From Planctomycetota bacterium (GTDB lineage: Bacteria > Planctomycetota > UBA8108 > SXIK01): a stretch of 64,000 nucleotides of DNA. Each line of letters begins with the position of its first letter. Position 1 is the first letter of the stretch. Positions 38,179 through 54,513 of this stretch are shown here, one piece after another. The notes under the pieces are model-generated. The model was not told where the DNA came from, did not search any database, and worked only from the letters and a program-made list of their open reading frames with translations. The position numbers were made by a program, and so were the translations under genes. Location of the stretch: positions 5,760,001 through 5,824,000 of the forward strand of contig OZ244999.1 of NCBI GenBank assembly GCA_965223265.1, given 5' to 3'.

Positions 38179-39879
38179 ATGCAGCGCCGAGAATTCCTAC
38201 AACAAGTGGGTGTGGCAGCGCTCGCCGCAGCGCCGCAGGGAGCTGGGCATGGCGCCAACGCGGCAGCGGCTCTGCACGAACGAGAGCGTGCGCCGAAGGT
38301 GTTCGTCTACGACGATGGACGCCACGGAGCACCGCTCTATCAATACGCGCCGCCCCTCTCACCCGAAGACTTCGTCTTCTCGATCGACCAACTGGTCGAC
38401 GCTGGCGCCGATGCGATCGTCTACATGGTCGGCCTTGAAGGCGGCGTTGCGCTCTACGACAGCCGTGTGGCGCAGAAGTGGGGTGACAACACGAAGAAGT
38501 GGAACCATCCCGTCTTTTACCGAGCCGCGCGTCACCTGCGAGCTCTCATCGAGTCGGGACACGACCCACTCGATCTGCTGTGCGAGCGCGCGCACGCCAA
38601 GGGTCTCCACTTCATAGCAGCGAACTGGGTAGCGCTCGAAGGCGGCGACACACCGCAAGTGCGTGGACACGGGCGCAAGTCGGACTTCGTGTACGACCAC
38701 CCACAGTATCAAGTCGGCAGCGACAGCCATCGCCTCGCCGAGCATGTTCATCCGCACCGCCTTAGCTTCCTGCATGAAGCGGTTCGCGAGGAACGCTTCC
38801 GTGTCTATGAAGAACTGCTCGCGCGCTATGCCACCGACGGAGTCGAGCTCAACCTCCTCGACCTCGCTCCATTCTGCAGATTCGGCGAAGTCGAACGACT
38901 CGCGCCACTCCTGACCGCTTGGCTGCGTCGGTTGAAGAGCAGCGCGGCGAGCGCGGCTGCCGCTCAGGGACGCGCAAAGCGCATCTACGCGCGGATTCCG
39001 GCGCTCGAGTCAGCTTGGCGCCTGTTCGGTTACGACGTCGCGACGTGGGTGCGTGACGGCCTGGTCGACGGGCTGGTCTGTTGTCCGGGGCTCATGGAAG
39101 CGCCGCTCGAGCACAACTTCGATCTCTCCCACCTCGTTGCGTTGGCGCGAGGCACGTCCTGCCAAATCGTTCATGGCTTCAGTGACCTCTTGGGTCGCCA
39201 ACTGAGGCGCGCTGCGACGCAGCCGATGGTGTGGGCCGCCGCGGCAAACGCATACGCCCAGGGCGCCGATGGCTTCGCGATTGTCGAGTACCACTGGACG
39301 CCGAACGGCTGGCCGCTGACCGAAAAGGACCACGGCACGCTGCGCCTACTCAGCCACCGAGACCTACTCGCGACAGCCGACAAGCTCTATCGAGTCCGTT
39401 CTCTCATGCGAGGTCGTACAGAAGGCGAGTGGCTGCCGGGAGCGAGCTCTCCTTTGCCGCAACCGCTCCAGACGGGGACAGCGGTGAACGTGGAGATGCG
39501 GATCTCCGATGATCTACAGCGTTGGCATAGCGAAGGGCGACTCGAAGAAGTGAAGCTGAGGGTCCGCATCACGAGTATTGAGCCATCTCTCAACGACGTT
39601 CGTGTTGAGCTCAATGGCGAGGCGTTCTCGAGCGAACACCTAGAGCTGAGCGATCTGACGTATCGCCAGTACGAGCTTGGAGCGCTGAATCCGTACAGCT
39701 TCATCTACGAGTATGCGTTACCTCCAGAATTGTTCCCGCGCGTCGGCGTCAACCAAATTGCGGTGACGCTGCTGAAGCGCGACCCGAACATCGACGTGGA
39801 GTTCAGCGTCTACGACGTCGACTGCAAAATCAGATATCGGCGCCATCGTCACTTTCGCAGCGAGCCGCTCGACTACTGA
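38179..39879 (+). CDS. Tat-exported glycoside-hydrolase-like TIM-barrel protein (GHL10/DUF187-like) with a C-terminal beta domain
   Basis: MQRREFL Tat motif; GHDPLDLLCERAHAKGL, LSFLHEAVRE, YATDGVELN, DVATWVRDGLVD, AYAQGADG. Confidence 0.7.
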   Translation: MQRREFLQQVGVAALAAAPQGAGHGANAAAALHERERAPKVFVYDDGRHGAPLYQYAPPLSPEDFVFSIDQLVDAGADAIVYMVGLEGGVALYDSRVAQKWGDNTKKWNHPVFYRAARHLRALIESGHDPLDLLCERAHAKGLHFIAANWVALEGGDTPQVRGHGRKSDFVYDHPQYQVGSDSHRLAEHVHPHRLSFLHEAVREERFRVYEELLARYATDGVELNLLDLAPFCRFGEVERLAPLLTAWLRRLKSSAASAAAAQGRAKRIYARIPALESAWRLFGYDVATWVRDGLVDGLVCCPGLMEAPLEHNFDLSHLVALARGTSCQIVHGFSDLLGRQLRRAATQPMVWAAAANAYAQGADGFAIVEYHWTPNGWPLTEKDHGTLRLLSHRDLLATADKLYRVRSLMRGRTEGEWLPGASSPLPQPLQTGTAVNVEMRISDDLQRWHSEGRLEEVKLRVRITSIEPSLNDVRVELNGEAFSSEHLELSDLTYRQYELGALNPYSFIYEYALPPELFPRVGVNQIAVTLLKRDPNIDVEFSVYDVDCKIRYRRHRHFRSEPLDY

Positions 39880-39888
39880 GGCGAGACC

Positions 39889-40914
39889 GTGGAAAAGACA
39901 ACGAGGCGACAATGGTTGGTCGCAGCAGGTGCCACAGGCATCAGCGCTCTCGGCTCGACACTTGCATGCTCCCAGCGCGAACCTCGGCAAGCGAGCGCGT
40001 CAGCACCGCAAAACACGCCACGAATTCCAGGCGTCGCAGAATCGAAATCCCCGGCGGTCTTCGATGCGCACGTCCACGTGTGGACTGCCGACACAACGCG
40101 GTACCCTCCTGCGCCTGGATTCGACCGATCCGATTTCTGGTTTCCGAGCTTTAGCGTCGAAGAACTGCTTGCCGCCGCGCGGCCATACGGCGTCACGCAC
40201 ATCAACTTTGTGCAAATGACCTGGTACGGCCTCGACCACACTTACATCGTCGATGCCATCGCAAAGGATCCGAAGCATCTCGTCGGCACGGGTGTCGTCC
40301 CGGCCGTCACGGACGTCGGTGGGCCTAGCCCGGACCGCACGATGCTCGACCTCGCCAAACGTGGTGTCGTCGCTTTCCGCATCCGCGGTAAGAGCACACG
40401 ACCACCCCTCGGGGATGGGCCACGCTGGTTAGACCATCCCGGCTACGAAAAAATGTTTCGCACAGCGGCAGAGCACAACTTGGCGCTGAGCTTCCTCATG
40501 GGACCATCAGATATCCCTGAGCTTGATCGTATGTGCGGAAGACATCCCGACGCTCCGGTCATTATCGATCACTTTTGCCTCGTCGGTCGCCAGGGAAATT
40601 TCGACGAGTCGGAGACGAAAGCGCTCGTCGCGATGGCCAAACACCGGCGAGTGTTGCTCAAGATCGGTGCTTTCTACGCGCTAGGAGCGAAGAAGGCCCC
40701 ATATCTCGACATGCTGCCGCTGATGCGCCGCGTTATAGAAGCATTCGGACCGGAGCGATGCATGTGGGAGAGTGACGCCCCGGTGCATCGATCGGCGCCA
40801 CACACTTACGGCGATTCGGTCGCGATCTTGCGTGACCACGCAGATTTTCTTTCGACTGCGGACAAGGAACAAATACTCTTCAAGACGGCACACCGGGCGT
40901 TCTTCGAGCGTTGA
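39889..40914 (+). CDS. Amidohydrolase_2 family protein (sugar lactonase-like), Tat signal
   Basis: TTRRQWL; FDAHVHVW, FVQMTWYGLDH, VIIDHF, FGPERCMWESDAP. Confidence 0.88.
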   Translation: MEKTTRRQWLVAAGATGISALGSTLACSQREPRQASASAPQNTPRIPGVAESKSPAVFDAHVHVWTADTTRYPPAPGFDRSDFWFPSFSVEELLAAARPYGVTHINFVQMTWYGLDHTYIVDAIAKDPKHLVGTGVVPAVTDVGGPSPDRTMLDLAKRGVVAFRIRGKSTRPPLGDGPRWLDHPGYEKMFRTAAEHNLALSFLMGPSDIPELDRMCGRHPDAPVIIDHFCLVGRQGNFDESETKALVAMAKHRRVLLKIGAFYALGAKKAPYLDMLPLMRRVIEAFGPERCMWESDAPVHRSAPHTYGDSVAILRDHADFLSTADKEQILFKTAHRAFFER

Positions 40915-41034
40915 AGAGGATTCGGACTGTGGGCGCGCACCCTCGAAGCGCATCCGCGCGCCAGATTGCGACGCGATTGCAGAGCCTGCGATCGCGTGAC
41001 CACGCAAAAACGATAGACCCTTTGGAGAGATGCA

Positions 41035-42033
41035 ATGAGTGGTTCGATCAGCCGGCGCGGGTTTTTCGGTTCATTGAAGGCGTTCGCCGCCGGAGCCATC
41101 GGCGCCAACCTCGTCAACCCCAGCGCCAACCTCAGCGCTCAACCCCCACGTGGGGATCTACCGATCAGCACAACACCACTGGCAGGAGGCACGCGCCCGT
41201 TCGTTAACCCACAGAAAGTTCTGCTGTGGGAAAGAACGCGCCGCGAAGTCCGTCAATGGCTCGAAAGTGGACAGCTGAAAGCCGCGATCCTACCGACTGG
41301 ATCAGTCGAACAGCACAACGAACACATGGCGATGGTCGCGGACGTCGCGATCGCTACGCTCTTCTCACAGCAGGTGGCGCTCGAGCTCTACCCCCACGTC
41401 ATCGTTGCACCACCGAGCCCCTGCGGGTTCGCGCCCTACCACATGGCACGCAAGGGCAGCGTCACGCTTCGCAAATCGACCTTTCAAGCCTACGTTTTCG
41501 ATGTCCTTGAGAGCTTGAAGGCTCATGGAATCAAAACAATTCTTGTTCTCAATGGTCACGGCGGCAACCACGCCCCACTGGTCGAAGCGGTAGGCGAGTG
41601 GAGACAGAAACTCGGAATCACACTCGAGGTCGATTCGTACTTCACCGCGCACAGCGGCTACGCCCAGACGATCACGGACTCTCCGCAGCTGACAGCGCAC
41701 GCAGGTGAGGTCGAGACTTCGATGTACATGGCAGCGTTTCCGGGTCGTCTTCGTCGCGTCACCATGAAGGAGTACGACGATGCCAAACTCAACTACGAGT
41801 CCGGCTTTTCGCCAGAGGTGTTGCCGTTTCTCGAACGCGATGGACGCACGACTGCAGAGCGACTCAAGGGAGAGAACAATCGCGACCGTCGCCGTCAGGA
41901 GGAGTCCCAGCTGGCGACAGCCGAAAAGGGTGAGAAGTTAATTCGACGCGGGACGGAGTTCTTCGCTAAGCGACTTCGCGAGATGATCGCCGCAACCGAA
42001 GCTGGAAAGCCGTGGCCCCTCAGTAATGGTTGA
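41035..42033 (+). CDS. Creatininase family protein, Tat signal
   Basis: ISRRGFF; LPTGSVEQHNEH, LNGHGGN, HAGEVETS, ATAEKG. Confidence 0.92.
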   Translation: MSGSISRRGFFGSLKAFAAGAIGANLVNPSANLSAQPPRGDLPISTTPLAGGTRPFVNPQKVLLWERTRREVRQWLESGQLKAAILPTGSVEQHNEHMAMVADVAIATLFSQQVALELYPHVIVAPPSPCGFAPYHMARKGSVTLRKSTFQAYVFDVLESLKAHGIKTILVLNGHGGNHAPLVEAVGEWRQKLGITLEVDSYFTAHSGYAQTITDSPQLTAHAGEVETSMYMAAFPGRLRRVTMKEYDDAKLNYESGFSPEVLPFLERDGRTTAERLKGENNRDRRRQEESQLATAEKGEKLIRRGTEFFAKRLREMIAATEAGKPWPLSNG

Positions 42034-42181
42034 GCCGACTTGCTATCACAGTCTCAACTCCGGGGGCGGTAGGAACTCGAGCGGCTTTTTGCTAAGGTAG
42101 GCAAGTTGCGGGTTGAAGGCTTCGACGTCGACAGCCCGATGAGTCATCGAACACAGTGGCAATCGACGGAAGGCATTCTCC

Positions 42182-42481
42182 ATGCTCAGGGTAGCTCTCG
42201 CGGTGCTTTGGCTCACCGGCTGCGCTTCCCAGACGTGCCACGACACCCATTCAGGATCCAGCCCTGTCGAGATGAACGAGGCGGAGTCGTACCGTCAGTT
42301 GCGCCATGAGCCGTGCGACTTTCGCTGCATAAGGGACACGAGCCGCGGCGTCAAACGAGACGCGTACTGGCAACGTCAAGAACCCCACTCAGACGATTGT
42401 GCCTGTTCGCGAGACTGCCCGTGTTGGAGCGACAGCGCCCTGTTCGAGGAGTCCGAACGGCGCTGGGGCATTTGGTGGTGA
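42182..42481 (+). CDS. Small Cys-rich putative lipoprotein
   Basis: Lipobox LWLTGC; 8 Cys including CACSRDCPC; co-directional with neighbours, ending 38 bp before the next gene. Confidence 0.5.
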   Translation: MLRVALAVLWLTGCASQTCHDTHSGSSPVEMNEAESYRQLRHEPCDFRCIRDTSRGVKRDAYWQRQEPHSDDCACSRDCPCWSDSALFEESERRWGIWW

Positions 42482-42519
42482 CGTAGCGGTGCTGAATAGC
42501 CCCCTCTGGAGGATAGCTG

Positions 42520-43761
42520 ATGACTTCTGCTAATACGACACGGTTGCTCGCCTTCGCTTTGTTGACTCTCATTCCGAGGATCCATGCCGCCGAGGCGCAG
42601 TATGAAAGTCGTTTCATCTTCGACCCCGAGGTCACCAACCGAGGCCACGTCCACGCTTCAGCACTCGTCGAGTGTCCGAACGGCGACCTCCGTGCCGTCT
42701 GGTACGAAAACGGCTCTAAGCTACCGACCCCGCCCTACTACAACGAGCGCCAAGACAAAAGCTCTGACGTCCGCATCGCCGGCAGTAGACGTGGCGCCGG
42801 AGCGAAGGATTGGGACACGCCGTTTGTCACCAGCGACACGTTCGGGGTTTCCGACAACAATCCCACAATGGCGGTCGATCGACAGGGAAGGCTGTGGCTG
42901 TTTCACTCCACGATGCTTGGCACGCCTGAGTGGACGTGGGGAAGTTCGATTCTGCAGTATCGCATATCGTCCGACTTCGACCGCGCGGGGGCTCCAGTGT
43001 GGAACGACGGTGGCCTTTTGCTTCCCCACCCGCAGGGAATCGAGGCGGTGGTCGACCGTATGGCCGAACGACTCGACACGCCCGAGCAAAAGAAACAGAA
43101 GGGCTTCTCAACCGAAAGAGCAAAGGCGTTCGTCGCCCAGCTGAAGCGATGGTCGAAAGATCCGATGCATCGCCGTCTCGGTTGGATGCCGCGCGCCCAT
43201 CCACTCGTACGCGCCGACGGCACACTGGTTGTGCCCTTGTCGAACGAGAATTTCAACATTCCAATGATGGCGATGACCAGCGACGGCGGCGCCACCTGGA
43301 CCTACTCGAATCCAGTTCCGGCCGCAGGACTGACACAGCCGACGCTCGTCGAGTTCGCAGATGGCGAAATCGTCGCGTTTTTCCGCAACAGTGATCCGCG
43401 CCGTAGAGTCCAGCGCGCGAGTTCAGTCGACGGCGGCGTGACTTGGTCCGTCCCAAAGCTGACGGATCGACTCCATCCAGGCGGTGGAATTGACGCGATC
43501 ATTCTAAAGAGCGGACATCTGGCGCTCGTCTACAACAACAAGGAGACAAAACCGCGCGACAAGCTCGCGATTTCGCTTTCTACGGATCGAGGGCGCACGT
43601 GGAGTTGGACGCGCCAGCTCGAGGACACGGCAGGTGGCCGATTCGACTATCCATCGGTCATACAGACGCGCGATGGCAAGATCCACGTGACATACTCCTA
43701 CCATCTGCGAACGATCAAGCATGTTGAATTCAGCGAGGCGTGGATCCGCGAGGCTGATTGA
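42520..43761 (+). CDS. BNR/Asp-box sialidase-like protein (secreted)
   Basis: Signal peptide; HASALVECPNGDL; Asp boxes TSDGGATW, SVDGGVTWS, STDRGRTW; FDYPSVIQTRDGKIHVTYS; RBS GGAGGA. Confidence 0.9.
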   Translation: MTSANTTRLLAFALLTLIPRIHAAEAQYESRFIFDPEVTNRGHVHASALVECPNGDLRAVWYENGSKLPTPPYYNERQDKSSDVRIAGSRRGAGAKDWDTPFVTSDTFGVSDNNPTMAVDRQGRLWLFHSTMLGTPEWTWGSSILQYRISSDFDRAGAPVWNDGGLLLPHPQGIEAVVDRMAERLDTPEQKKQKGFSTERAKAFVAQLKRWSKDPMHRRLGWMPRAHPLVRADGTLVVPLSNENFNIPMMAMTSDGGATWTYSNPVPAAGLTQPTLVEFADGEIVAFFRNSDPRRRVQRASSVDGGVTWSVPKLTDRLHPGGGIDAIILKSGHLALVYNNKETKPRDKLAISLSTDRGRTWSWTRQLEDTAGGRFDYPSVIQTRDGKIHVTYSYHLRTIKHVEFSEAWIREAD

Positions 43762-43826
43762 TCGCATGCCGACTGCCACGCGCAGATCCACGCGGCGAAG
43801 GACGCGAATCCACTTCGAGGGACAGC

Positions 43827-45230
43827 ATGACCAAGAGAAAGTATTCCAAGTGTATAGTTCTCGTTCTGGCAACTGGACTCTTTCACGCAGCCGCAGATGC
43901 TCAAGGAACAAAGGGAACGACGACCTTCAAGCGTATGAAGGAGTACCTCGACTCCGTTCCTGCCATCGACACGCACGAACACCTCATGCCTTTTCAGAAC
44001 TTCCAGACGAAGCCAGGCTCTCGGCGCGGCGCGAACCTTCACACGCTCTGGAAGTCGAGCTACTACACTTGGTACAACCCGTTGACGCCATGGACGGAGT
44101 CGATGCCGTTCGAGGCTTGGTGGCAAAAGGCACGCGAGGATTTCAAAAACGCGCGCGCCACGAGTTTCTACCGCTACCAGCTACCAATTTATGACGACCT
44201 CTATGGCGTCGAGTTCGAGGCGCTGACCGACGAGCAGGCACGCCAGCTCAACGACCGCATCGTCGAGAACTACCGCGACCAAAAGTGGACCTACGAAGTC
44301 ATCACGCAGCGCGCCAACATCGAATTGATCGTCAATGACCCGTTCTGGAATCGCCTCGGCATGGAGACGATTTGGGGTTTCGAGGCACCGGTACTCAACG
44401 TCACCTCGCTGACGCGGGGATACCATCCGTCCTCGTACGTCCGCGCGCCGAATGAAGACCCCTACCTGTATGCCGAAAAGAACAACCTGCCGATCACGAC
44501 GCTCGACGAGTACGTCGCAGTGATTGACACGATTTTCGCGGAAGCCAAGAGACGTGATGTCGTCTGCCTGAAGACGACCCTTGCTTACGAGAGGACGCTT
44601 CGTTTCGAGAACGTACCGAAGGAACGTGCAGCGCCCCACTTCGGCAAGAAGAAGGCGGACCTCTCCGCTGCCGAGATCAAAGAGTTCGAAGACTACATCA
44701 TGTGGCGCCTCGTCGAGCTCAGCGCTAGGCACGACCTACCGTTTCAGATCCACACGGGACAGGCGCGCATCCAGAGTTCCAATCCCCTGCAACTCGTCGA
44801 CATGATCGCGGCCAACCGTGACACCAAGTTCATTCTCTTTCACGGCGGCTACCCATGGGTCGACGACGCTGGGGTCATCGTGCAGCGCCATTCGTCGCAC
44901 GTTTGGATCGACTCGTGCTGGTTGCCGACACTGAGCTACAACATGGCGAAACGCGCCTACCACGAATGGCTCGACGGCATGCCGTCGAACCGCATCCTCT
45001 GGGGCGGCGACTGCCTTCACGCCGATGGTATCTACGGCGCCACCGAATTCACCCGCCGCTGCCTGGCGGAGGTCCTCGCCGAGCGGGTCGATCGTGGCGA
45101 CCTTAAAGAAGAGTACGCGCGCCGCATCGGACGCCAAATTTTGCGCGAGAACGCCCTCGAGCTTTTCCCACCGCTAAAAAAGAAGCTGTGGAAGCATAAG
45201 CAGAAGAGACTCGACGTACCGGCAGAGTAA
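43827..45230 (+). CDS. Amidohydrolase family protein (uronate isomerase-like), secreted
   Basis: Signal peptide; IDTHEHL, LKTTLAYERTL, FQIHTG, LFHGGYPW, WIDSCWLP, WGGD. Confidence 0.85.
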   Translation: MTKRKYSKCIVLVLATGLFHAAADAQGTKGTTTFKRMKEYLDSVPAIDTHEHLMPFQNFQTKPGSRRGANLHTLWKSSYYTWYNPLTPWTESMPFEAWWQKAREDFKNARATSFYRYQLPIYDDLYGVEFEALTDEQARQLNDRIVENYRDQKWTYEVITQRANIELIVNDPFWNRLGMETIWGFEAPVLNVTSLTRGYHPSSYVRAPNEDPYLYAEKNNLPITTLDEYVAVIDTIFAEAKRRDVVCLKTTLAYERTLRFENVPKERAAPHFGKKKADLSAAEIKEFEDYIMWRLVELSARHDLPFQIHTGQARIQSSNPLQLVDMIAANRDTKFILFHGGYPWVDDAGVIVQRHSSHVWIDSCWLPTLSYNMAKRAYHEWLDGMPSNRILWGGDCLHADGIYGATEFTRRCLAEVLAERVDRGDLKEEYARRIGRQILRENALELFPPLKKKLWKHKQKRLDVPAE

Positions 45231-45232
45231 AG

Positions 45233-46684
45233 CTATCGCGCGCCACCTCGCTCGATCACAGCTTTCTCGCGCTCGAGTCGTTCGAACATCGCCTTGAACG
45301 CCGCCGAACCGTCATCATCCCAGTAGTCGGTCGTGACGGGCGCATCGAAGCTCACTGGAAAGAGACGCCGACGATCAGGACGTACCATGAAGAGAGAGTC
45401 GTCCGGATCGTGGAGGTTGTACATCATCGTGCCGTTCGCATAGCGTGTCCTCACGATCCACCTGGGTGCGGGCGGCGGCGGCAGGTTCTTCAGACGATTC
45501 AGTTCGTCTCGATCGAGTGTGACGCCCAAACCAGGCTTCTCGGACACCCGTACCAGTCCGTTGACCGGATCGAGCTTTTCGTTGGTGACGTCCGACTTAA
45601 AGATCTCGCCAGCACTGATGAAGTGAAAGCTGGCAGTTTTGAATGCCGCCTGCATGTGAGTCGTCATCGAGCGAGTGATCGCACCCCCGACGTTTTGTAG
45701 CATGAAGGGGATCTGCGCCGCTGCGAAAAGCCCAGCGCGGCGTCTTGCCACACCTATGTTGGCATGTCCCAACATGTACGCGTCCGCGGCGCGGCGAAGA
45801 ATCTCGTGCGTTGCTCCCATGGGGCTATGGTGAAGCACGACCGGCAGGCGCGTTCGCGCGCGCAAGTCCACGTAGCCCTCGAGATCGCGCGGCTCAAGCG
45901 GATCCTCGAAGCAACCGGAGATCGGGTAGTTCGACATCTTCTCAAGCACTTCGAACATGTGATCGACGGTGCCGCACATCGTGAAATCGAAGTGAAGCCT
46001 GAAGCCCTTCGGAGCCACCGCCTGCATCGCTTCCAGTTGATCGAAGATGTTCTCGAAGGGAGACAGGTGAAACTTGAGCCAGGTGAAGCCGCGAGCGCTG
46101 TGACGCTGGACGGCCTCTGCCATTCTCTTGGGCTGCGTCGAGACGGTCCAGGCCGACACCGGCACCCACTTTCGATAGGCCTGCCCAAAGAGCTTATAGG
46201 CCGGCACCTGCGCCGCCTTGCCCATGAGGTCATACATCGCGGTGCCGAGGCCGAGCGACGTCTCATCACCGACCCAGTCCCACGGGCTTGTACCGATGTA
46301 TTTTTGGATGATGTCATCGGACGCCCGTGAGCCACTCTCGCCAAGCCCTGTAAGACCAGCGTTCGTGTGCACGATATATATGGTCCGCTTCCACGGACCG
46401 TAGTAGTGCATGAGCTGGTACGCGTTCCAGTCATCGAACTCCAGTGTGATGTCGTGAGCCTCGATGTCGGTGATGGTCAGTCGACCATGCGCCGAATCGG
46501 AGCGTTTCTTTGCAGCTAGGGCTGGCGCGGGGCTCGCGAGCTGCCACGCTGCGGCCGCGCCCGTGGCGCCGGCAACCAGCGCCAAACTGCGCGCGAGAAA
46601 ATCGCGGCGCTCAACACACGCACGACTCGACGTGTCATCGACATCAGTTCTTGGGTTCGGCATCGGCCCTAAATCTCGCTGCAT
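45233..46684 (-). CDS. Mandelate racemase/muconate lactonizing (enolase superfamily) enzyme, Tat signal
   Basis: ERRDFL; ITDIEAH, TNAGLTGLGE, AMYDLMGKAAQVPAYKLFG, LKFH, FEDP, PGLGVTLD. Confidence 0.9.
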   Translation of the reverse strand: MQRDLGPMPNPRTDVDDTSSRACVERRDFLARSLALVAGATGAAAAWQLASPAPALAAKKRSDSAHGRLTITDIEAHDITLEFDDWNAYQLMHYYGPWKRTIYIVHTNAGLTGLGESGSRASDDIIQKYIGTSPWDWVGDETSLGLGTAMYDLMGKAAQVPAYKLFGQAYRKWVPVSAWTVSTQPKRMAEAVQRHSARGFTWLKFHLSPFENIFDQLEAMQAVAPKGFRLHFDFTMCGTVDHMFEVLEKMSNYPISGCFEDPLEPRDLEGYVDLRARTRLPVVLHHSPMGATHEILRRAADAYMLGHANIGVARRRAGLFAAAQIPFMLQNVGGAITRSMTTHMQAAFKTASFHFISAGEIFKSDVTNEKLDPVNGLVRVSEKPGLGVTLDRDELNRLKNLPPPPAPRWIVRTRYANGTMMYNLHDPDDSLFMVRPDRRRLFPVSFDAPVTTDYWDDDGSAAFKAMFERLEREKAVIERGGAR

Positions 46685-46773: not shown

Positions 46774-47094
46774 ATGCTTACCTCGACGACTCCCTCGATC
46801 GAAGGTCACGCCATTGTTACGTACCACGGCGTGGTCACCGGAGAGGCGATCCTTGGCGCCAATATATTCAAAGACTTCTTTGCCGGCATCCGCGATGTCG
46901 TCGGCGGGCGTGCGGCTGCTTACGAAAAGGAGCTCGGCAAGGCACGTCGGATCGCGTTTTCGGAGCTGGAGGCAAAAGCCGCCGAAATCGGCGCCAACGC
47001 AGTTGTCGGCATCGACCTCGACTACGAAACAGTCGGCGCGCAGGGTGGCATGCTCATGGTCAGCGTCAGCGGCACGGCGGTCACTTTGGAGTGA
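46774..47094 (+). CDS. ybjQ: YbjQ/UPF0145 putative heavy-metal-binding protein
   Basis: [64 protein letters not shown]; RBS AGGAG. Confidence 0.93.
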
Positions 47095-47109
47095 AAACAC
47101 GGGTCAATA

Positions 47110-48225
47110 CTACCGACTCTTCGCGCACATCACCCAGAGTGGCGTCCCACCGGTCTCATACGTTGTGAGCGATTCGAGCGCGCCCGTCTTCGGGTCAATC
47201 CGGTAGGAAGCCAGCTTCGCATCACCCTGACCAGCCGAGTAAACGTAGCTCCCCGTGACATCGATACAAAACGCGCGCGGGAAACGCGGCGTCGGGTAAT
47301 ACCCGACGATCTTCATGGCACCGCTCTTTGGGTCCAGAGCCACGCCGCACAGCGTGTCGCGGTGCGCTCCTTCCTTGCGCTCCGTTGAATCACGGTTGGA
47401 GACGTAGGCGAATCGACCATCCGGGGTGATCCAGATGTCGGCTCCAGCACTCGTGCCTTCATAGTTCGGCGGCAACGTCGAGAGCGTCTGCGTCAGCTCA
47501 AGCGTGCCGCGATCCGGATCAAACTTCCAGGCGCTGATGCCACCGCCGCGTTCGTTCGAAGTGTACGCCATGTGGAGTTTCGGATGGTGGGCGTAGTGAC
47601 GCGGCTGATGGTAGTAGTGATCTTCGTCTGGTCCGGTGACAAACGCCGGCGTGCTCGGAGTCAGCTGACCGGTGGCAGAGTCGAGCCGAAATTGATAGAC
47701 CTTGTTCGGAGCTGTGTGCGGAACGAAGACGTAACGGCCGGACGGGTCGACCTCAATACAGTGCGCGGTCTTATCCGTTTTTTCTTGGTCGAGGAGCTCG
47801 CTGGTCGCAATGCCATCCGTTATCCGGTAGACGGTGACATCGCCGGCGCCATAGTGAGCCGCCAACAAGTACTTTCCCGCCGCGTCCGTGCAGAGGTACG
47901 GCGCACGGGTGGTCAACGTTGACGTCGCCACAACCCCAAGGGTGTCGTCGGCATTCCGTCGCAAGGTCGTCACGCCGAACTTCCCGTCCGCGAGCGCGCC
48001 GACGACAGCGTAGACAAACGACTGGTCGGGAGAAAATGTCATCGCGCCCGGGCTTACATCGAGATGCGTCGTGTAGCGTTTGGTCAGACCACCAGTGTCT
48101 TGGTCGATTTCGTAGCAAGTGATCGTCTTCTCTTGGTTGGAGGAAAGATAGAGAACCTGGCCGGCAAACGTCGTTGAGGCGAGCAAAGAAGGTAGCACTA
48201 AGGCGAAAAGGACGAATCGAAACAT
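47110..48225 (-). CDS. Lactonase family 7-bladed beta-propeller (6-phosphogluconolactonase-like), secreted
   Basis: Signal peptide; LLAAHYGAG, AHCIEVDPSGRY, QPRHYAHHP, QTLSTLP, ADIWITPDGRFAYVSNR, PRAFCID. Confidence 0.92.
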   Translation of the reverse strand: MFRFVLFALVLPSLLASTTFAGQVLYLSSNQEKTITCYEIDQDTGGLTKRYTTHLDVSPGAMTFSPDQSFVYAVVGALADGKFGVTTLRRNADDTLGVVATSTLTTRAPYLCTDAAGKYLLAAHYGAGDVTVYRITDGIATSELLDQEKTDKTAHCIEVDPSGRYVFVPHTAPNKVYQFRLDSATGQLTPSTPAFVTGPDEDHYYHQPRHYAHHPKLHMAYTSNERGGGISAWKFDPDRGTLELTQTLSTLPPNYEGTSAGADIWITPDGRFAYVSNRDSTERKEGAHRDTLCGVALDPKSGAMKIVGYYPTPRFPRAFCIDVTGSYVYSAGQGDAKLASYRIDPKTGALESLTTYETGGTPLWVMCAKSR

Positions 48226-48543: not shown

Positions 48544-49908
48544 ATGCTTCGCATCGAGACATCGGGCGAGTCCGGTCGTTACTGCGACGGCGTCAGTCGA
48601 CGCAGCTTCGTACAGCTGGGAGTCGCCGGCATGGCCAGCCTTGGACTCGGCGACGTCCTGCGCGCACGGGCGCTATCGCACCCTGCAATCCGCGCCGAGA
48701 AAGACACTTCCGTACTCCTCATCTGGCTCGACGGTGGCCCGAGTCACATGGATCTTTGGGATATGAAGCCGGATGCGCCGAGCGTCTACCGTGGTATCTG
48801 GCGCCCGATCCACACCAACGTGCCCGGCATCGACATCACAGAGATGTTTCCGCGCCAGGCGAAGGTTGCCGACAAATTCTCGATCGTTCGCTCCTTCCAC
48901 CACGACCAAGGCGACCATTTCACCGGGGCGCACCACATGCTCACCGGCCGCGGCGGCGCCAGCGGTAGCGACACGAAGGGTAAGTTTCCCTCGATCGGTT
49001 CGATTGCGACGATGGTGACGGGAGCACGCCGCCGTGGCATGCCTGCATACGTCGGTATCCCGATTTGCGCCAGCGTCGGCCTCAACCCCGGGTACTTCGC
49101 TGCCCACTTTCTTGGTGGTCATCGTGACCCGTTCCAGACTGGCGGCGACCCGAACCGCGACGACTTCAAGGTCAACAACCTCAACTTGCCGAGCGGGCTT
49201 TCGATCGACAGACTGGAGGACCGCCGTGCTCTGAAGGGACGCCTCGACCAGCTGGCGCGTCAAGTCGAACGCACGGCGAGCTTCGAGACGCTTGACGAGT
49301 TCGACCTGGCCGCGTATGAGTTCGTTTGCGGCGATGCTGCGCGCAAGGCGTTCGACCTCAGCTCGGAGGATCCCCGCATCCGTGATCTTTACGGCCGGCA
49401 CGGTTGGGGCCAGAGCACACTCCTGGCGCGGCGACTCGTCGAAGCCGGTTCGACGTTCGTCACGGTGCACTTCGGCGGCTGGGATCATCACTGGAATCTT
49501 GAAGCTGGTATGAATAGCTACTTGCCGCGCGTCGATTCAGCGCTGTCGGCTCTCTTCGGTGATCTCGACCAACGCGGCCTGCTCGAAAAAACCCTCGTGG
49601 TTGTCTGCGGCGAATTCAGTCGCACGCCGCGTATGAACGACGGCAGCGGCAACGGCACGCCAGGGCGCGATCATTGGGGCCGTTCGATGGCAGTGGTGAT
49701 GGGCGGCGGCGGCGTTCAGGGTGGTCGCATCGTCGGTTCAACGGACAGTCGCGGGGAACGCCCCAAAGACCACCCGCTGACCATGGGCGATTTCCACTCG
49801 ACGATTTACCACGTCCTCGGCATCGACCCGCGTCTCAGCATTCTCGATCACAGCGGACGACCGATCCATCCGGTGGAGAAGGGCGACGTGATTCACGAGC
49901 TGTTTTGA
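48544..49908 (+). CDS. DUF1501 domain protein (Tat signal)
   Basis: RBS GAGGAGGT; YCDGVSRRSF, IWLDGGPSHMDLWDMKP, LLARRLVEAG, WDHH, GEFSRTP, GRDHW. Confidence 0.95.
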   Translation: MLRIETSGESGRYCDGVSRRSFVQLGVAGMASLGLGDVLRARALSHPAIRAEKDTSVLLIWLDGGPSHMDLWDMKPDAPSVYRGIWRPIHTNVPGIDITEMFPRQAKVADKFSIVRSFHHDQGDHFTGAHHMLTGRGGASGSDTKGKFPSIGSIATMVTGARRRGMPAYVGIPICASVGLNPGYFAAHFLGGHRDPFQTGGDPNRDDFKVNNLNLPSGLSIDRLEDRRALKGRLDQLARQVERTASFETLDEFDLAAYEFVCGDAARKAFDLSSEDPRIRDLYGRHGWGQSTLLARRLVEAGSTFVTVHFGGWDHHWNLEAGMNSYLPRVDSALSALFGDLDQRGLLEKTLVVVCGEFSRTPRMNDGSGNGTPGRDHWGRSMAVVMGGGGVQGGRIVGSTDSRGERPKDHPLTMGDFHSTIYHVLGIDPRLSILDHSGRPIHPVEKGDVIHELF

Positions 49909-50006
49909 GCGTGATGCTCGATTCGGATGGGCGGAGACAAGCGCAAGAATGCGCACTCTCCTCCAGCCGCCTTCGCGTCATGGTTGTCTATTTGACTCCA
50001 CGGCGC

Positions 50007-51305
50007 TCAAACGCTCGCCAGCTCGTAACCGGAGCGATACTCGCGGTCGAGGTAACGGTTAGCGTCGGGATCGTCAGGAAACGTCTCGGTCTTGGGATCG
50101 AACCGTAGGCGCCGTCCGGTGCGGTAGGAGATGTTTCCAAGATGGCAAAGAAGCGACGAGAGATGGCCTTCTTCGATATCGGCGATGAGCTCAGTGGTCT
50201 TACGATTCCTGACGCAATTGATGAAGTTCTCGTAGTGTCGCGTGGTGTCTCTCCACACCTTGCCACCTGAACGCACCAGCTCATTGCCGCGGAAGACGCG
50301 GTAGCCGTCCCGATCAACCATCAAGTAACCTTCGTCGCCGTAGATGATGTTGTCGTTGTCGAGTCGATGCCCCTGCATGCGGTAGGGAGTGAAATCACGC
50401 TGCTCGAAAACATAGAGGAGTTCGTCGTACTCCCACGTCACCACCATGGTGTCCGGTGTCTCCTGAGCATCGCCACGCGATCCCAGTTTCGCACCGCTGC
50501 ACGAGACGGCTTTGGGTGCGCCAAGGCCAAGAGCCCAGCGCCCTAAGTCGACCTGGTGCACGCCGTCATTACCGAGGTCGCCCGTGCCATAGTCCCACAG
50601 CCAGTGCCAGCCACGATGAAAACGATTGCGATTGAACGGACGTTTCGGCGCGGGGCCGATCCAGAGATCGTAATGAACCCCTGCCGGGACAGGCTCGTCC
50701 GCGGCGTGCGGCATGCGTCGACGCCTCTGATTGTTGATCGCCTTCACCATGAGCACTTTCCCGATGATGCCATCGCGGAGCAGCTGCCACGCCTCCTCGT
50801 AGTGTGGTACCGCACGCAGCTGCGTGCCATGCTGAACAACACGTTGATACTTTTGTGCCGCTTTCACTGCCAGCCGCCCCTCGCGGATGTTATGAGATGC
50901 AGGCTTTTCGACGTAGACGTCCTTACCAGCGACACACGCCGCGATCGTCGCTGGTGCGTGCCAGTGGTCAGGCGTGGCGACGATCAGCGCGTCGATGTCG
51001 TGACGTTCAAGTGCGCGACGAAAATCAGCTATCTGCTCCGGTCGCTTGCCTGTCTCTTTCTCGAGTCGATCGCATAGCTTCGCGGCGCGGGCGTCATCGA
51101 CATCGCAAACGATCGCGATTTCGCTCTGGGGCACGCGCGCAAACCATCCCGCCACACCTGCACCTCGACCGCATCCCATCACTGCGGTGCGGACCGTTTC
51201 GTGCGCAGCGTAGCTGGAACGCAGACTGCCAAGCTGTGACGCCAGGAGCGCACCACCCATACCTACAGACGCCCTGCCAAGAAAAGTGCGTCGAGTGAGA
51301 CCCAT
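50007..51305 (-). CDS. Gfo/Idh/MocA family NAD(P)-dependent oxidoreductase, Tat signal
   Basis: LTRRTFL; GCGRG, VCDVD, ATPDHWHA, GKDVYVEKP, YDLWIGPAP, GDLGNDGVHQVD, CHLGNISYRTG. Confidence 0.95.
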   Translation of the reverse strand: MGLTRRTFLGRASVGMGGALLASQLGSLRSSYAAHETVRTAVMGCGRGAGVAGWFARVPQSEIAIVCDVDDARAAKLCDRLEKETGKRPEQIADFRRALERHDIDALIVATPDHWHAPATIAACVAGKDVYVEKPASHNIREGRLAVKAAQKYQRVVQHGTQLRAVPHYEEAWQLLRDGIIGKVLMVKAINNQRRRRMPHAADEPVPAGVHYDLWIGPAPKRPFNRNRFHRGWHWLWDYGTGDLGNDGVHQVDLGRWALGLGAPKAVSCSGAKLGSRGDAQETPDTMVVTWEYDELLYVFEQRDFTPYRMQGHRLDNDNIIYGDEGYLMVDRDGYRVFRGNELVRSGGKVWRDTTRHYENFINCVRNRKTTELIADIEEGHLSSLLCHLGNISYRTGRRLRFDPKTETFPDDPDANRYLDREYRSGYELASV

Positions 51306-51451
51306 CGTTCCCTCCGCATGAGAATCGACCAAACTTCGGCGCGGATACGCGGCGCAAGCGCGAGAACACAGGTCCCTATGCTAACCAGCAGCGATCGACT
51401 CGACAACCGTCCCAAGCTTCACCCGACGCGGTAGAGGTTTCAGAAGGTTAA

Positions 51452-51516
51452 CAGCCCGCCTGAAGAAGTCATTCGGCCGAGAAACTGGTCTCTTCACGCC
51501 CAACTCAGCCGCGGCG
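51452..51516. mobile_element. MITE family B, truncated copy (one arm only)
   Basis: TTAA|CAGCCCGCCTGAAGAAGTCATTCGGCCGAGAAACTGGTCTCTTCACGCCCA matches the left arm of the 54816 element. Confidence 0.75.
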
Positions 51517-51587
51517 CGAGATCGTCCGGTGCGAGGTAGTGTTGACTGGTGCTGACACAAGCGCGAGGAAATTCGGGCTTGTCTGTG

Positions 51588-52619
51588 CTATCGCGACAGC
51601 ACCCCCTTCTTCTCAAGGAAAGCCTTCAGCTCTCCCAGCTCATCGAGTCGATTGCCGCGCCGCGGTGGCCGCATGAGTGTCGTCTTGTAGAGTCCCATCA
51701 GATGGAGCACAGACTTGTAGTTGTGCGGATAGCCAAGTTTGCCGGTAATCTCGAGGAGCGGCTCTTCGAAGTCATAGACGATGTCGCGGGCTCGCTCGTA
51801 TTTCCCCTCCGTAAGTGCACGATAGAACTTAAGGGTGATTTCCGGGGCGAACGGGGCTGCCGGACACAGGTACGCGGCAGAACCGGCGAAGTAGCCGAAG
51901 AGAAAATGCTTCATCTGGCCGGCGCTCAAAACTGCAAAGTTATACTCTTTCGTCGCTCTGCAAAACGCGTAGTAGTTGTAGAGTTCCTCGTGGCACTTGT
52001 CGCCGATCACCTTCGGCAGCTGTGCCAGACGCTTCATCAAATCGAGCGAGTACTTTCGATCGACCGTCAGGAGCGGCACCTCCGTGCGGGCGTCGATGGT
52101 GCGAAACGCGTCGTAAACCTCGTCCTCACCGCGAGCCAGGTCGCCTATGTGGACATTGATGGCATCGACTCCCGAGTCGGCAACGCGATTGATGAACTCG
52201 ATCGTACGACCGGTCCACCAGGCTCCGGTGCCGCCAATGACAAGAGTGCGGCCACGTGCCTGATCGGTCACGGTCCGGGTGACCTTTTCAATCTCCTCCT
52301 CCGTCAGAAAGCCAAGCTCGCTGTCGCCGTACGTGAGAAAGAGAATCGGCTGTTTCTTTTCGCACATAAACTCGACCCACGAACGGAGGCTGCCGTAGTC
52401 GATCGAGAAGTCCGTGTTGTACGGAATCGTGATGGAAGCCATGGGCCCCTTGAGGCGATCCAGGACCCCTTGGCAGCGCTGGTTGCGCTGCAGTCGGGCT
52501 ACGCCTCCGTGGACGCGTGTGCCGAACGCGGGCGTGAACGCCACCGCCGCGACGCTACCCAACGCGCTCGACAGAAACCGGCGACGGCTCAAGGGTACGA
52601 AAGCTCTGGATGCGTCCAT
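51588..52619 (-). CDS. Dihydrodipicolinate synthase/N-acetylneuraminate lyase family protein (class I aldolase-like), Tat signal
   Basis: LSRRRFL; LKGPMASITIPYNTDFSIDY, LTEEE, VIGGTG, SGVDAI, VIGDK (Schiff-base Lys position), YKSVLHLMG..MRPP. Confidence 0.85.
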   Translation of the reverse strand: MDASRAFVPLSRRRFLSSALGSVAAVAFTPAFGTRVHGGVARLQRNQRCQGVLDRLKGPMASITIPYNTDFSIDYGSLRSWVEFMCEKKQPILFLTYGDSELGFLTEEEIEKVTRTVTDQARGRTLVIGGTGAWWTGRTIEFINRVADSGVDAINVHIGDLARGEDEVYDAFRTIDARTEVPLLTVDRKYSLDLMKRLAQLPKVIGDKCHEELYNYYAFCRATKEYNFAVLSAGQMKHFLFGYFAGSAAYLCPAAPFAPEITLKFYRALTEGKYERARDIVYDFEEPLLEITGKLGYPHNYKSVLHLMGLYKTTLMRPPRRGNRLDELGELKAFLEKKGVLSR

Positions 52620-52911
52620 GTGGATCCTCTCTCTTTGATCAAGGTATGGCGACTGCTCGTTCACAATAAGGAACACGACGCGAACTGTCCATTGCTCACG
52701 GCTCTGCGGATAGAGGTTTAAGAATTCGCACAGGTACGTCGGATGCGAGTGCACTGTACAAATTTCTCTGGTCTTGCTCTCGAGCCCGGCCGCAATCTAT
52801 AGATCGACGGACCACCGTTTCGAACAGCTTTTGATTGCCGCTCCGAGGTTCTTGCGGCACGATGACATACTGTGTTCTCATCGAGCTCTCGACGGAAGAA
52901 AGGCGAACATC

Positions 52912-54513
52912 ATGCGACCGCAACTCTCGACGCTCCTTCTTAGCGTAGCCTTGACGATCGTTGGCACGAGCAGCGACGCCCAGGTTCCCCTGACGACGAT
53001 CCGAGTCGCGTCAGGACTCGAAAAGCCGGTTCAGGCCACAGCGCCGGCAGGCGATTGCGAGCGCATCTTCATCGTCGATCAGTCGGGTCAAATCCTCGTC
53101 CTGAGCCAGGAACAGTTCGGTGCTACGCCAACGCAGATGTTTCTCGATATCTCATCGAAGGTCGCCCCGCCGGACCGCATTTGGCACGACCGCAGCGAGC
53201 AGGGACTTCTCAGCATGGCGTTCCACCCGAGCTATGACGAGAACGGCTATTTCTACGTCCACTATATCGAGACCGGTCCTGACCTCGATCCCGAGGCGAT
53301 CATCATCGGGGACTCGGTCATCGCTCGCTATTCCGTCTCCGGCGACCCGAACGTCGCTCTCGCCGAGAGCGAGGAACGCGTCCTCGTCGTCGACAACAAC
53401 ACTGAAAACCACAACGGCGGCATGATCGCCTTTTCACCGAACGACGGCTTTCTCTATATATCACTGGGAATCATGAGCGGCTCAGGGCCGGAAGGCCTCG
53501 ACCTATCGCTCCTGCAGGGAAAGCTCCTGCGCCTCGATGTGAACAGCGACGACTTTCCTGATGAAGAGGATCGCAACTACGCCATACCCACAACCAATCC
53601 ATTCGTCGGTGTCGAGGGAGCCCGCGGCGAGATCTGGTCACAAGGGCTGCGCAATCCCTGGCGCTTTTCGTTCGACAGGGACACGGGCGATCTCTATCTC
53701 GGCGATGTCGGCGGTGGGACGCGCGAAGAGCTCAACTTTCAACTTGGAACCAGCGTCGGCGGTGAGAACTACGGCTTCAACACCTACGAAGGCACGGTGT
53801 GTCGCAGCGGCGACGGCTGCGACCCAGATGGCGTGACGTTCCCTGTTCTTGAGCGCGAGCATACCTCGAACGTCAAGGAGTCGATTATCGGCGGATATGT
53901 CTACCGTGGTGACCGCATTCCCGACCTTGTGGGCACGTACATCTACGGTGACTGGTGGGTCGAAGGTTCAACGTCGGAGCCAGTGCCCGACGGCATGTCG
54001 AAGTTTTGGTCGCTGCGCATGGTCAACGGCGAAGTGACAGAGCACCAAGAGCGTACGGACGAGTTTGACCCCGGCGACGGACTGACGATCAGCAACCTGA
54101 CTTCGTTCGGCGAAGACGGCACCGGTGAGATCTATATCTGCGCACGCGCCGACGTCGACACACTCGGCCAGGGGACAGGAGAGGTCTACAAGATCGTCGC
54201 CGCCGACGACACTGAACCGATGACGATCTGCCCGACGGTTGACGATGAATTCACCCGCGGTGACTGCAACAACGACGGCGAGCTGGACATCTCCGACGGC
54301 GTCTTCAACCTGATCGTGCTCTTCTTCTCCGATCGCCCACCGGAGTGCGCCGAGGCCTGCAACGCCAACAACGACGCACAGAACGACGTCTCAGACGCCC
54401 TCTTTGTGTTCAACTATCTGTTTGTCGGTGGCGCCGAACTCGAGGCACCGTTCCCAACCTGCGGCAGCGATGCCGGCGACAGCCTCGGATGCGTGCAGGG
54501 CGCCTGCGACTGA
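52912..54513 (+). CDS. PQQ-dependent sugar dehydrogenase (GSDH family) with a C-terminal dockerin-like domain
   Basis: Signal peptide; EQGLLSMAFHPSY, NHNGGMIAFSP, GKLLRLDV, YAIPTTNPF, GLRNPWRFSFD, GGYVYRG, SFGED; FTRGDCNNDGELDISD. Confidence 0.93.
   Translation: MRPQLSTLLLSVALTIVGTSSDAQVPLTTIRVASGLEKPVQATAPAGDCERIFIVDQSGQILVLSQEQFGATPTQMFLDISSKVAPPDRIWHDRSEQGLLSMAFHPSYDENGYFYVHYIETGPDLDPEAIIIGDSVIARYSVSGDPNVALAESEERVLVVDNNTENHNGGMIAFSPNDGFLYISLGIMSGSGPEGLDLSLLQGKLLRLDVNSDDFPDEEDRNYAIPTTNPFVGVEGARGEIWSQGLRNPWRFSFDRDTGDLYLGDVGGGTREELNFQLGTSVGGENYGFNTYEGTVCRSGDGCDPDGVTFPVLEREHTSNVKESIIGGYVYRGDRIPDLVGTYIYGDWWVEGSTSEPVPDGMSKFWSLRMVNGEVTEHQERTDEFDPGDGLTISNLTSFGEDGTGEIYICARADVDTLGQGTGEVYKIVAADDTEPMTICPTVDDEFTRGDCNNDGELDISDGVFNLIVLFFSDRPPECAEACNANNDAQNDVSDALFVFNYLFVGGAELEAPFPTCGSDAGDSLGCVQGACD

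Follow-up and report, generated by a model that had tools for sequence, protein, structure and literature searches.

A mosaic of exported enzymes with a candidate conserved module for acidic sugars in a Planctomycetota genome

Introduction

Where eleven enzyme genes follow one another in a bacterial genome, each with an N-terminal leader that would direct its product out of the cytoplasm, the question arises as to whether they make up a single extracytoplasmic pathway or simply happen to lie together. This is the situation at positions 38179-54513 of a window of 64,000 nucleotides (the whole stretch of DNA that was analysed) from the genome of a Planctomycetota bacterium (G000, 9.18 Mb, in which 5448 open reading frames (ORFs) were called with a codon-usage score). 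Counted from position 38143, the region comprises 11 enzyme-sized ORFs and one small ORF; seven of the enzymes carry twin-arginine (Tat) leaders and four carry Sec-like ones, and the small ORF among them, a YbjQ gene, is leaderless. An initial annotation had read the 11 genes as an exported non-phosphorylative sugar-acid pathway, and the 11 family assignments on which this was based are all reproduced by Pfam (in the case of the protein called GH-like, by a sub-threshold GHL10 match only).

The reading favoured here, to which we would give a probability of about one half, is that the stretch is a mosaic of exported enzymes holding a conserved core module for acidic sugars. The core would consist of a protein resembling glycoside hydrolase family 156 (GH156), an Amidohydro_2 metal hydrolase, a creatininase-family hydrolase and a DHDPS-family protein; judged at the level of sequence, a linear route from aldose to pyruvate is not supported as such. 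The evidence is suggestive of a partial breakdown of acidic sugars in an extracytoplasmic location, an acid-sugar theme that is plausible in itself and whose flavour is the stronger because of the GH156 and uronate-isomerase folds predicted for two of the proteins.

The conserved core module

The first three genes of the stretch lie on the plus strand with gaps of 9 and 120 nucleotides between them. They encode the GH156-like protein, glycosidase-like and of (beta/alpha)8 type, whose Tat leader begins MQRREFLQ (38179..39879), the Amidohydro_2 metal hydrolase (39889..40914; Pfam E 6.9e-30), whose Tat leader (TRRQWL) is followed by a possible lipobox, LAC, and the creatininase-family hydrolase (41035..42033; Pfam E 3e-45; Tat leader SRRGFF). 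The fourth member, a divergent DHDPS/N-acetylneuraminate-lyase-family protein (51588..52619, minus strand; Pfam E 4.2e-19; Tat leader SRRRFL), is encoded about 10 kb away, and it is in other genomes that its link to the core becomes visible.

In a marine metagenome contig (L062) a single strand carries an aldo-keto reductase (AKR) gene, an ortholog of the DHDPS-family gene (58% identity), RidA, an RraA-like gene, a second DHDPS-family gene, a GH156-like gene (48%), Amidohydro_2 (57%) and the creatininase-family gene (64%), with an RR motif on every product except the RraA-like one, which has a lipobox-like leader. A genome of the same family as the source (G002) has a GH156-like gene (Tat), a triple RidA, and creatininase (69%), Amidohydro_2 (57%), RraA-like (68%) and AKR (55%) genes, divided between the ends of two contigs, with the creatininase gene split across them. 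In another phylum, in two Terriglobia genomes (G417 and G418, which are kin and are counted once), a distance of about 8 kb separates the DHDPS ortholog (46-48%; Tat) from a second DHDPS-family gene (52%), Amidohydro_2 and creatininase (55-57%; Tat); close by are a GH42-like gene with a Tat tag and an SSF symporter. Taken gene by gene, GH156-like orthologs at 47-48% identity have these partner genes as neighbours in both L062 and G002, Amidohydro_2 orthologs at about 50-57% (58% for a partial match at the edge of the G418 locus) adjoin creatininase in L062, G002 and G417/G418, and creatininase orthologs at 55-69% are present in these same places.

The four genes thus appear to form a genuine conserved module, albeit a rare and patchy one, found in at least three lineages belonging to two phyla, two of the three being Planctomycetota. 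Around this core, in other Planctomycetota and in Terriglobia, there are further Tat-tagged enzymes (AKR, RidA and the second DHDPS-family protein), and RraA-like genes are there too. It should be borne in mind that, of the 18 metagenome loci with DHDPS orthologs, many are short contigs, and that the synteny rests on a few long contigs.

Two further loci may be mentioned beside these. In a Terriglobia locus (L089), which speaks for the acid-sugar theme, five GH156-like genes and two genes of the enolase subfamily (39-43% identical to that of the window, one of them split over two frames) are interleaved with a Gfo/Idh/MocA oxidoreductase (GFO) gene and two epimerase-family genes; all five GH156-like proteins, both enolase-subfamily proteins, the GFO protein and one of the two epimerase-family proteins were scored as Tat-like. 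The split enolase-family gene (L089:11434-12814) and an Amidohydro_2 gene likewise split over two frames (L095:4913-5888), both in G417, may reflect either real frameshifts or assembly errors. In the source genome itself, about 17 kb of a second locus (C1:5151000-5190999; L090, L091) bring together paralogs of the DHDPS, MR_MLE (Tat), Amidohydro_2 and GH156-like genes; the leaders there are mixed, and it was not counted as support.

Export leaders

Leaders were judged by a home-made heuristic. A Tat substrate is expected to have an N-terminal motif of the (S/T)-R-R-x-F-L type, followed by an uncharged h-region, upstream of the mature domain. Seven proteins have this arrangement, with the motifs QRREFL, TRRQWL, SRRGFF, ERRDFL, SRRSFV, TRRTFL and SRRRFL, and Sec-type h-regions can be read in the translations of the other four, in agreement with the initial annotation.

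A motif found in one translation could of course be an accident of start-codon choice, and it had been recognised that the true starts might lie downstream of the arginines. The relatives point the other way. An RR motif lies upstream in 28 of the 31 loci at which orthologs of the enolase-superfamily gene occur, and in an alignment of 29 relatives R26-R27 is nearly invariant, the remainder of the leader not being conserved. Among relatives of the DHDPS-family protein it is present in 38 of 43, the other five being N-terminally truncated so that they start inside the mature domain. In the uronate-isomerase-like family a leader is seen in 107 of the 120 clusters listed (at least 1449 homolog clusters exist), and in the GH156-like family RR occurs in 78 of 120, clearly leaderless forms of about 538 residues being also present. 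For the Amidohydro_2 core protein RR was read at the N-terminus of the L062, G002 and G417 orthologs, and for the creatininase-family protein in L062 and G417, the G002 N-terminus lying beyond the end of its contig. Because the motif is conserved in orthologs in this way, the start codons may be taken to lie upstream of it.

The genome also encodes TatC (PF00902, E 2.9e-54; C1:5358433-5359686), so that both the conserved motif and the coding capacity of the genome bear out the proposal that the enzymes are exported. As far as sequence can tell, the leaders are genuine and the export of all 11 enzymes is well supported. As an aside, the TatC model matches in two pieces about 600 nucleotides apart within a single 458-residue frame, as would be expected if a long insertion followed the first transmembrane segment.

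Is the whole stretch one pathway?

If all the enzymes are exported, the simplest proposal would be that the 11 genes encode one linear, exported, non-phosphorylative aldose pathway, made up of dehydrogenase, lactonase, enolase-type dehydratase and DHDPS-type aldolase. All four step-families are indeed present with leaders, and a periplasmic route would have to be kinase-free, as the stretch is: Pfam finds neither a kinase nor a transporter domain within 38-54.5 kb, just as the initial annotation had noted. There is room for dehydratase chemistry too, in that the wider clade to which the enolase-superfamily protein belongs keeps a KxK motif and an invariant His343.

The arrangement of the genes in relatives, however, argues against this proposal. 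A DNA search of 30 relatives found the cluster in none of them, and in the best-assembled relative homologs of the DUF1501 and GFO genes are 2.9 Mb apart. Orthologs of the enolase-superfamily gene (57-70% identity) occur at 31 loci in Planctomycetota and Acidobacteriota, and none of the other ten genes, the lactonase, GFO, glucose/sorbosone dehydrogenase (GSDH) and DHDPS-family genes included, is syntenic with it there at ortholog level; its immediate neighbours are diverse (58 proteins). Conversely, the lactonase, GFO, GSDH and enolase genes never accompany the DHDPS ortholog at its 18 loci. Within the window, too, the 11 genes lie on mixed strands and form at least five transcription units; the enolase-superfamily protein is without the canonical catalytic set; and the partners that truly are conserved (creatininase, Amidohydro_2, RidA, RraA-like, AKR) are not steps of such a pathway. 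A pathway gene cluster would be expected to be conserved together, and this is true only of the GH156-like/Amidohydro_2/creatininase/DHDPS core and not of the 11 genes as a set. The claim that they form one pathway is therefore not supported by the comparison with relatives, and we consider the linear route improbable. The scattering that had been named in advance as evidence against it was found for most of the genes, the core subset being the part that recurs together.

The enolase-superfamily and DHDPS-family proteins

The linear proposal also depends on what the two proteins at its centre might catalyse. The enolase-superfamily gene (45233..46684, minus strand; Tat leader ERRDFL) encodes a divergent MR_MLE enzyme, the C-terminal barrel of which matches MR_MLE_C (PF13378) with E 2.7e-23 and 83.3 bits against a cut-off of 29.4. 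Invariant in 29 relatives are K204-x-H206, D233, E260, H285, G306-H307 and H343. In this superfamily strands 3, 4 and 5 would each be expected to supply an acidic metal ligand; here the third site is the invariant His285, which is shared by 35 of 38 more distant relatives of full length. In place of the KxK motif and strand-6 Lys of the MLE subgroup there are K204-x-H206 and G306-H307, while as regards MR-subgroup features H343 is invariant and is a candidate for the strand-7 His (the strand assignment being tentative), and the wider clade, which is mostly leaderless, has KxK and keeps His285. The clade is small, with 97 representatives at E ≤ 1e-30 among 1.84 billion. A description of the protein as "MLE-subgroup-like", which the top PDB matches had suggested, was dropped after this residue analysis.

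The DHDPS-family protein matches PF00701 with 68.8 bits (cut-off 22.1) and keeps the Schiff-base Lys, in the sequence GDKCHEEL, where G-D-K-C-H aligns with the G-x-K of paralogs. The Tyr of the family's Y-N/H-x-P motif has a role in proton relay; at this position the protein has T-V-D, and some orthologs have Y-E-S. Twelve DHDPS paralogs were found in the source genome, the window gene being the only one that is Tat-tagged, and a search of 5.8 billion proteins gives just 43 related clusters for its clade at E ≤ 1e-20. The PDB matches of the protein include N-acetylneuraminate lyases (8u8w, 1.8e-9), although its similarity to NanA does not exceed that to DapA or KdgD.

The names "dehydratase" and "aldolase" given by the initial annotation are thus not secure, the one protein being without KxK, a third acidic ligand and the strand-6 Lys, and the other without the Tyr. 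Since none of the proteins of the stretch reaches an NCBIfam equivalog cut-off, every named reaction is something that we infer; and since, in addition, the PDB sequence matches are remote, "dehydratase", "aldolase" and "lactonase" alike should be read as family-level guesses.

The GH156-like protein

What the core module acts on depends heavily on its first enzyme. Pfam gives only the sub-threshold GHL10 match (19.1 bits against a cut-off of 27.9), but a profile built from 64 homologs finds PDB entry 6rzd, a GH156 exosialidase, with E 6.9e-19, and Foldseek with an AlphaFold2 model (mean predicted local distance difference test score, pLDDT, 91.2) finds 6s00_A over the full length (E 3.5e-32, template-modelling (TM) score 0.72/0.82, 541 columns), the next match being Cwp19 at 2.7e-13. 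The protein is accordingly predicted to have the fold of a GH156 inverting exosialidase, an assignment that is new here.

The reference enzyme is EnvSia156 (6rzd/6s00; PMC6811678, PMC6254351), in which the catalytic base is Asp14, and for which PMC6811678 gives His134 as the acid and Arg129, Arg202 and Asn346 as the carboxylate binders; signal peptides are common in the family. The two proteins share a (beta/alpha)8 barrel and a C-terminal beta domain over their whole length, and the counterpart of R246 is conserved here as R268. An invariant DDGRH (D45-D46) stands at the end of strand 1, where Asp14 would be expected, the positional equivalence being inferred; the Asp14 region falls outside the hidden Markov model (HMM) alignment. 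In contrast, sequence identity is 21%, and R129, H134, R202 and N346 all fall on variable columns of the GH156-like family. The column of His134 holds D, R or E, and the carboxylate triad is absent by alignment, only R246 being kept; the HMM alignment runs through loops, and these assignments are correspondingly uncertain.

A more specific reading would make the stretch a periplasmic pathway for N-acetylneuraminic acid (Neu5Ac), in which the GH156-like protein and the GH33-like BNR_2 protein act as sialidases, the DHDPS-family protein as a NanA-like lyase, and the amidases deacetylate the product. This would account for the full-length GH156 fold match, for the matches of BNR_2 to sialidases and for the presence of N-acetylneuraminate lyases in the DHDPS family, and a preprint counts Planctomycetes as the commonest phylum among 556 putative GH156 sequences. 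It is hard to reconcile with the lack of conservation, in the alignment, of the binders R129, R202 and N346 and the acid H134, with a DHDPS-family protein that lacks the catalytic Tyr and stands no nearer to NanA than to DapA or KdgD, and with BNR_2 matches that are partial and weak, and we regard it as highly improbable. The GH156-like proteins are probably a sister family of GH156 with other substrates, likely acidic ones. The source genome has 6 paralogs at E ≤ 1e-15 (8 at E ≤ 1e-10), and there are 17-18 in each of the two Terriglobia genomes G417 and G418, often in tandem.

The remaining enzymes

PDB sequence searches with both Amidohydro_2 proteins, the creatininase-family protein and the BNR_2 protein returned remote matches only, which do not fix a reaction. 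For the Amidohydro_2 protein of the core the best is a putative 2-pyrone-4,6-dicarboxylate hydrolase (4.5e-8), its NCBIfam scores being far below the cut-offs, and the creatininase-family protein matches MftE, creatininase and IolN, in each case far under the cut-off.

The BNR_2 gene (42520..43761, plus strand; Pfam E 5.6e-43; Sec leader) encodes a sialidase-like six-bladed propeller, with partial, remote PDB matches to sialidases (best 9.3e-7). Next to it lies the second Amidohydro_2 gene (43827..45230, plus strand; Sec leader), the start of which was taken at M24 of the long ORF. Its product matches Amidohydro_2 at 2.7e-18 and Pfam UxaC below threshold (20.2 bits against a cut-off of 25). 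With its AlphaFold2 model (pLDDT 89.6), Foldseek finds first an amidohydrolase of P. limnophilus (4i6v, 1.2e-15) and then the uronate isomerases 1j5s (7.6e-14, TM 0.72/0.75), 2pnk, 2q01 and 3iac, so that a uronate-isomerase fold is predicted, which is also new here. A pairing of this gene with BNR_2 was considered and rejected, as the one relative with the uronate-isomerase-like ortholog (G003) has no BNR_2 neighbour.

Beyond the enolase-superfamily gene, the lactonase-family gene (47110..48225, minus strand; Pfam E 1.2e-58; Sec leader) encodes a seven-bladed beta-propeller scoring 183 bits against the NCBIfam 6-phosphogluconolactonase cut-off of 370. It is followed by a sulfatase-like DUF1501 gene (48544..49908, plus strand; Pfam E 6.4e-97; Tat leader) and by the GFO gene (50007..51305, minus strand; Pfam GFO_IDH_MocA; Tat leader). 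At the far end of the stretch, beyond the DHDPS-family gene, lies a GSDH gene of the pyrroloquinoline quinone (PQQ) type (52912..54513, plus strand; Pfam E 2.3e-25; Sec leader). Pfam does not confirm the dockerin that the initial annotation saw on the GSDH protein, but the last 80 residues share 44% identity (E 1e-14) with the Dockerin_1 module of a CHRD protein elsewhere in the window (58239-59759), so that a C-terminal dockerin-like module may be retained. Dockerin-like C-termini are also present in two more proteins of the window, this CHRD protein and a 653-residue protein whose C-terminal module recurs in 25 genes of the source genome.

Does the density of leaders exceed chance?

The rival that has to be taken most seriously at this point is that there is no functional unit at all, and that unrelated exported enzymes have come to lie side by side by chance, Tat-like leaders being present on about 10% of the genes of this genome and Sec-like N-termini on about one third. 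By the heuristic, 539 of the 5448 ORFs are Tat-like, as against 72 of 3204 in a control using internal sequences, and 1775 of the 5448 are Sec-like, a class that takes in membrane anchors. No other 11-gene window of the genome is as rich in Tat leaders (7 of 11, with a single further region at 6), but when labels were shuffled 2000 times a window with at least 7 Tat genes arose in 7% of cases (P about 0.07), and the run of 11 leader-bearing genes is exceeded by a run of 14 elsewhere.

Paralogs counted by tblastn in the source genome point in the same direction. Of 118 DUF1501 paralogs 101 are Tat-like, as are 24 of 28 for GFO. Leaders are also found genome-wide on 11 of 28 MR_MLE and 9 of 21 Amidohydro_2 paralogs. 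Among the BNR_2 and lactonase paralogs, Sec-like leaders are seen on 8 of 9 and on all 4, respectively. DUF1501 and the Tat-tagged GFO are genome-wide filler families, and DUF1501 is probably unrelated to the module. Because of the shuffle frequency, the longer run elsewhere and the origin of two of the seven Tat genes in very large families, Tat density alone is suggestive only and is no proof of a unit. The varied neighbours of the enolase gene and the absence of the cluster from close relatives would also fit a chance run. What such a run does not explain is the close spacing of the trio and its recurrence as 47-69% orthologs in G002 and L062, or the reappearance of the DHDPS ortholog close to Amidohydro_2 and creatininase both in L062 and in a second phylum, in families as rare as these (43 DHDPS clusters; a creatininase homolog in 2 of 401 genomes). 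A chance run therefore seems unlikely, though by no means negligible.

Weighing the module

To return to the mosaic with a conserved core, there are several points that weigh against it. Five close relatives have no ortholog of the DHDPS-family gene at E ≤ 1e-20, and the best match to the enolase-superfamily protein in the same five is just 39% identical; close creatininase homologs (E ≤ 1e-60) are found in the aforementioned 2 of 401 sampled genomes of the phylum. G002 has the module but no DHDPS ortholog, in G417/G418 no GH156-like gene adjoins it, and in the source genome the best homologs of RraA, AKR and RidA are encoded at other places. To these must be added the shuffle frequency, the use of the heuristic rather than SignalP or TatP, the NCBIfam scores below equivalog cut-offs, the missing Tyr of the DHDPS-family protein and the variable GH156 active-site columns. 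Finally, exported NAD(P) enzymes (GFO, AKR) need cofactor recycling, for which no means was identified.

A possible mechanism

In this reading the same-strand trio would be functionally linked to the Tat-tagged DHDPS-family enzyme, and the steps might run as follows. The GH156-like enzyme would free an acidic sugar, of the ulosonic or uronic type, from imported glycan in the periplasm; the two metal hydrolases (Amidohydro_2 and creatininase-family) would ring-open or deacylate it; and the Lys-containing DHDPS-family enzyme would carry out a Schiff-base lyase or dehydratase step. ATP would not be required, and such a route would therefore be kinase-free by necessity. Where they are present, RidA, the RraA-type aldolase and AKR could handle imine, 4-hydroxy-2-oxo-acid and aldehyde products, respectively.

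The Tat route would be taken by the metal- or cofactor-dependent barrel and Rossmann enzymes, presumably folded and loaded beforehand, and the Sec route by the beta-propellers and the uronate-isomerase-like protein, a split that fits the general picture of Tat as a system for proteins that fold and load their cofactors before export. The uronate-isomerase-like, enolase-superfamily, lactonase, Tat-tagged GFO, PQQ-type GSDH and BNR_2 proteins would then be independently exported members of large paralog families rather than fixed partners, and it is plausible that their substrates are related sugars, acidic or oxidised, of that compartment.

Other features of the stretch and the window

A twelfth gene, which the initial annotation had omitted, lies between the Tat-tagged enolase-superfamily gene and the Sec-tagged lactonase gene; it encodes a small YbjQ_1 protein ("putative heavy-metal-binding"; 46774..47094, plus strand; Pfam E 1.2e-37) with no leader by the heuristic, and stands outside the exported set. 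Directly upstream of the GH156-like gene (36935-37735, minus strand) there is a 266-residue protein without a Pfam family, a 65% homolog of which lies 9 kb from an enolase ortholog in an Acidobacteriota locus (L007).

Scans of 37500-55000 for promoter and terminator consensus sequences gave no more sites than in shuffles (2 against 3.8, and 16 against 15.9, respectively). A repeat of about 70 base pairs occurs in the intergenic region between the GFO and DHDPS-family genes (51445-51516) and again just past the GSDH gene (54816-54878), with further copies in the source genome at 2024359, 3211048, 3211168 (minus strand), 4744470 and 5428342 (82-93% identity); it may be a small dispersed intergenic element. 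Elsewhere in the window (3308-8086, 15094-17439, 21882-26492 and 56195-59759) there are, besides the 653-residue and CHRD proteins mentioned above, a 1592-residue ankyrin-repeat protein and two proteins with CotH and lamin-tail domains.

Significance and comparison with known systems

A full-text literature search found no paper on Tat-exported enolase-superfamily or DHDPS-family enzymes, within the limits of that search. A tentative and rather doubtful extension of the module would be that Planctomycetota and some Acidobacteriota have moved whole kinase-free acidic-sugar routes into the periplasm by means of Tat-exported versions of textbook-cytoplasmic families (enolase superfamily, DHDPS-type lyases, RraA-type aldolases, RidA, aldo-keto reductases, creatininase-type and Amidohydro_2 hydrolases and uronate isomerase), so that only small end products such as pyruvate would cross the inner membrane; the exported enolase clade, with its K-x-H/D/E/His/G-His site, would then be a new subgroup binding a transition metal that is loaded in the cytoplasm before Tat export. 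Should the enzymes of the stretch indeed act outside the cytoplasm, central-type reactions (isomerisation, dehydration or epimerisation at a carboxylate, Schiff-base lyase chemistry) would be taking place in the periplasm of abundant ocean and soil glycan degraders, models of carbon uptake, transporter needs and cross-feeding for these bacteria would change, and the great size of the Tat exportome, which the heuristic puts at about 10% of ORFs, would find a functional explanation. Even short of this, three targets stand out, namely the GH156-like family, of which one genome may contain as many as 18 paralogs, the small enolase clade with its histidine-rich site, and the rare DHDPS clade in which all 38 members with an intact N-terminus bear RR.

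The non-phosphorylative Entner-Doudoroff, Weimberg and Dahms routes use a cytoplasmic dehydrogenase, lactonase, dehydratase and KDG-type aldolase. The stretch resembles them in having the same enzyme superfamilies and no kinase; it differs in that all its enzymes are leader-tagged, that there is no conserved operon and that the catalytic signatures of the enolase-superfamily and DHDPS-family proteins are altered.

Closer in location are the systems for periplasmic sugar oxidation, such as the PQQ glucose dehydrogenase of pseudomonads and acetic acid bacteria, or the Tat-exported glucose-fructose oxidoreductase of Zymomonas with its periplasmic gluconolactonase. There too the dehydrogenase and lactonase steps are extracytoplasmic, and a Gfo/Idh/MocA enzyme leaves through Tat carrying its bound cofactor; but the known systems end at the aldonate or ketoaldonate, whereas here isomerase-, enolase- and lyase-type enzymes are leader-tagged as well. 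The BT_2158 glycoside 3-dehydrogenase family of Bacteroides, which has a periplasmic role, is the best NCBIfam match of the Tat-tagged GFO protein (1.7e-40, 139 bits against a cut-off of 750), although only the N-terminal 272 residues align and Pfam finds no xylose-isomerase-like partner in the stretch.

The comparison with uronate isomerase, UxaC, is of a similar kind. The predicted fold matches 1j5s, 2pnk, 2q01 and 3iac over the full length (TM about 0.64-0.72), and an invariant D-T-H-D-H follows strand 1 in the window's family; identity, however, is 13-15%, the Pfam UxaC match is under its cut-off, and the closest structure is the uncharacterised planctomycete amidohydrolase 4i6v. UxaC is a cytoplasmic enzyme, whereas the protein of the window carries a Sec leader.

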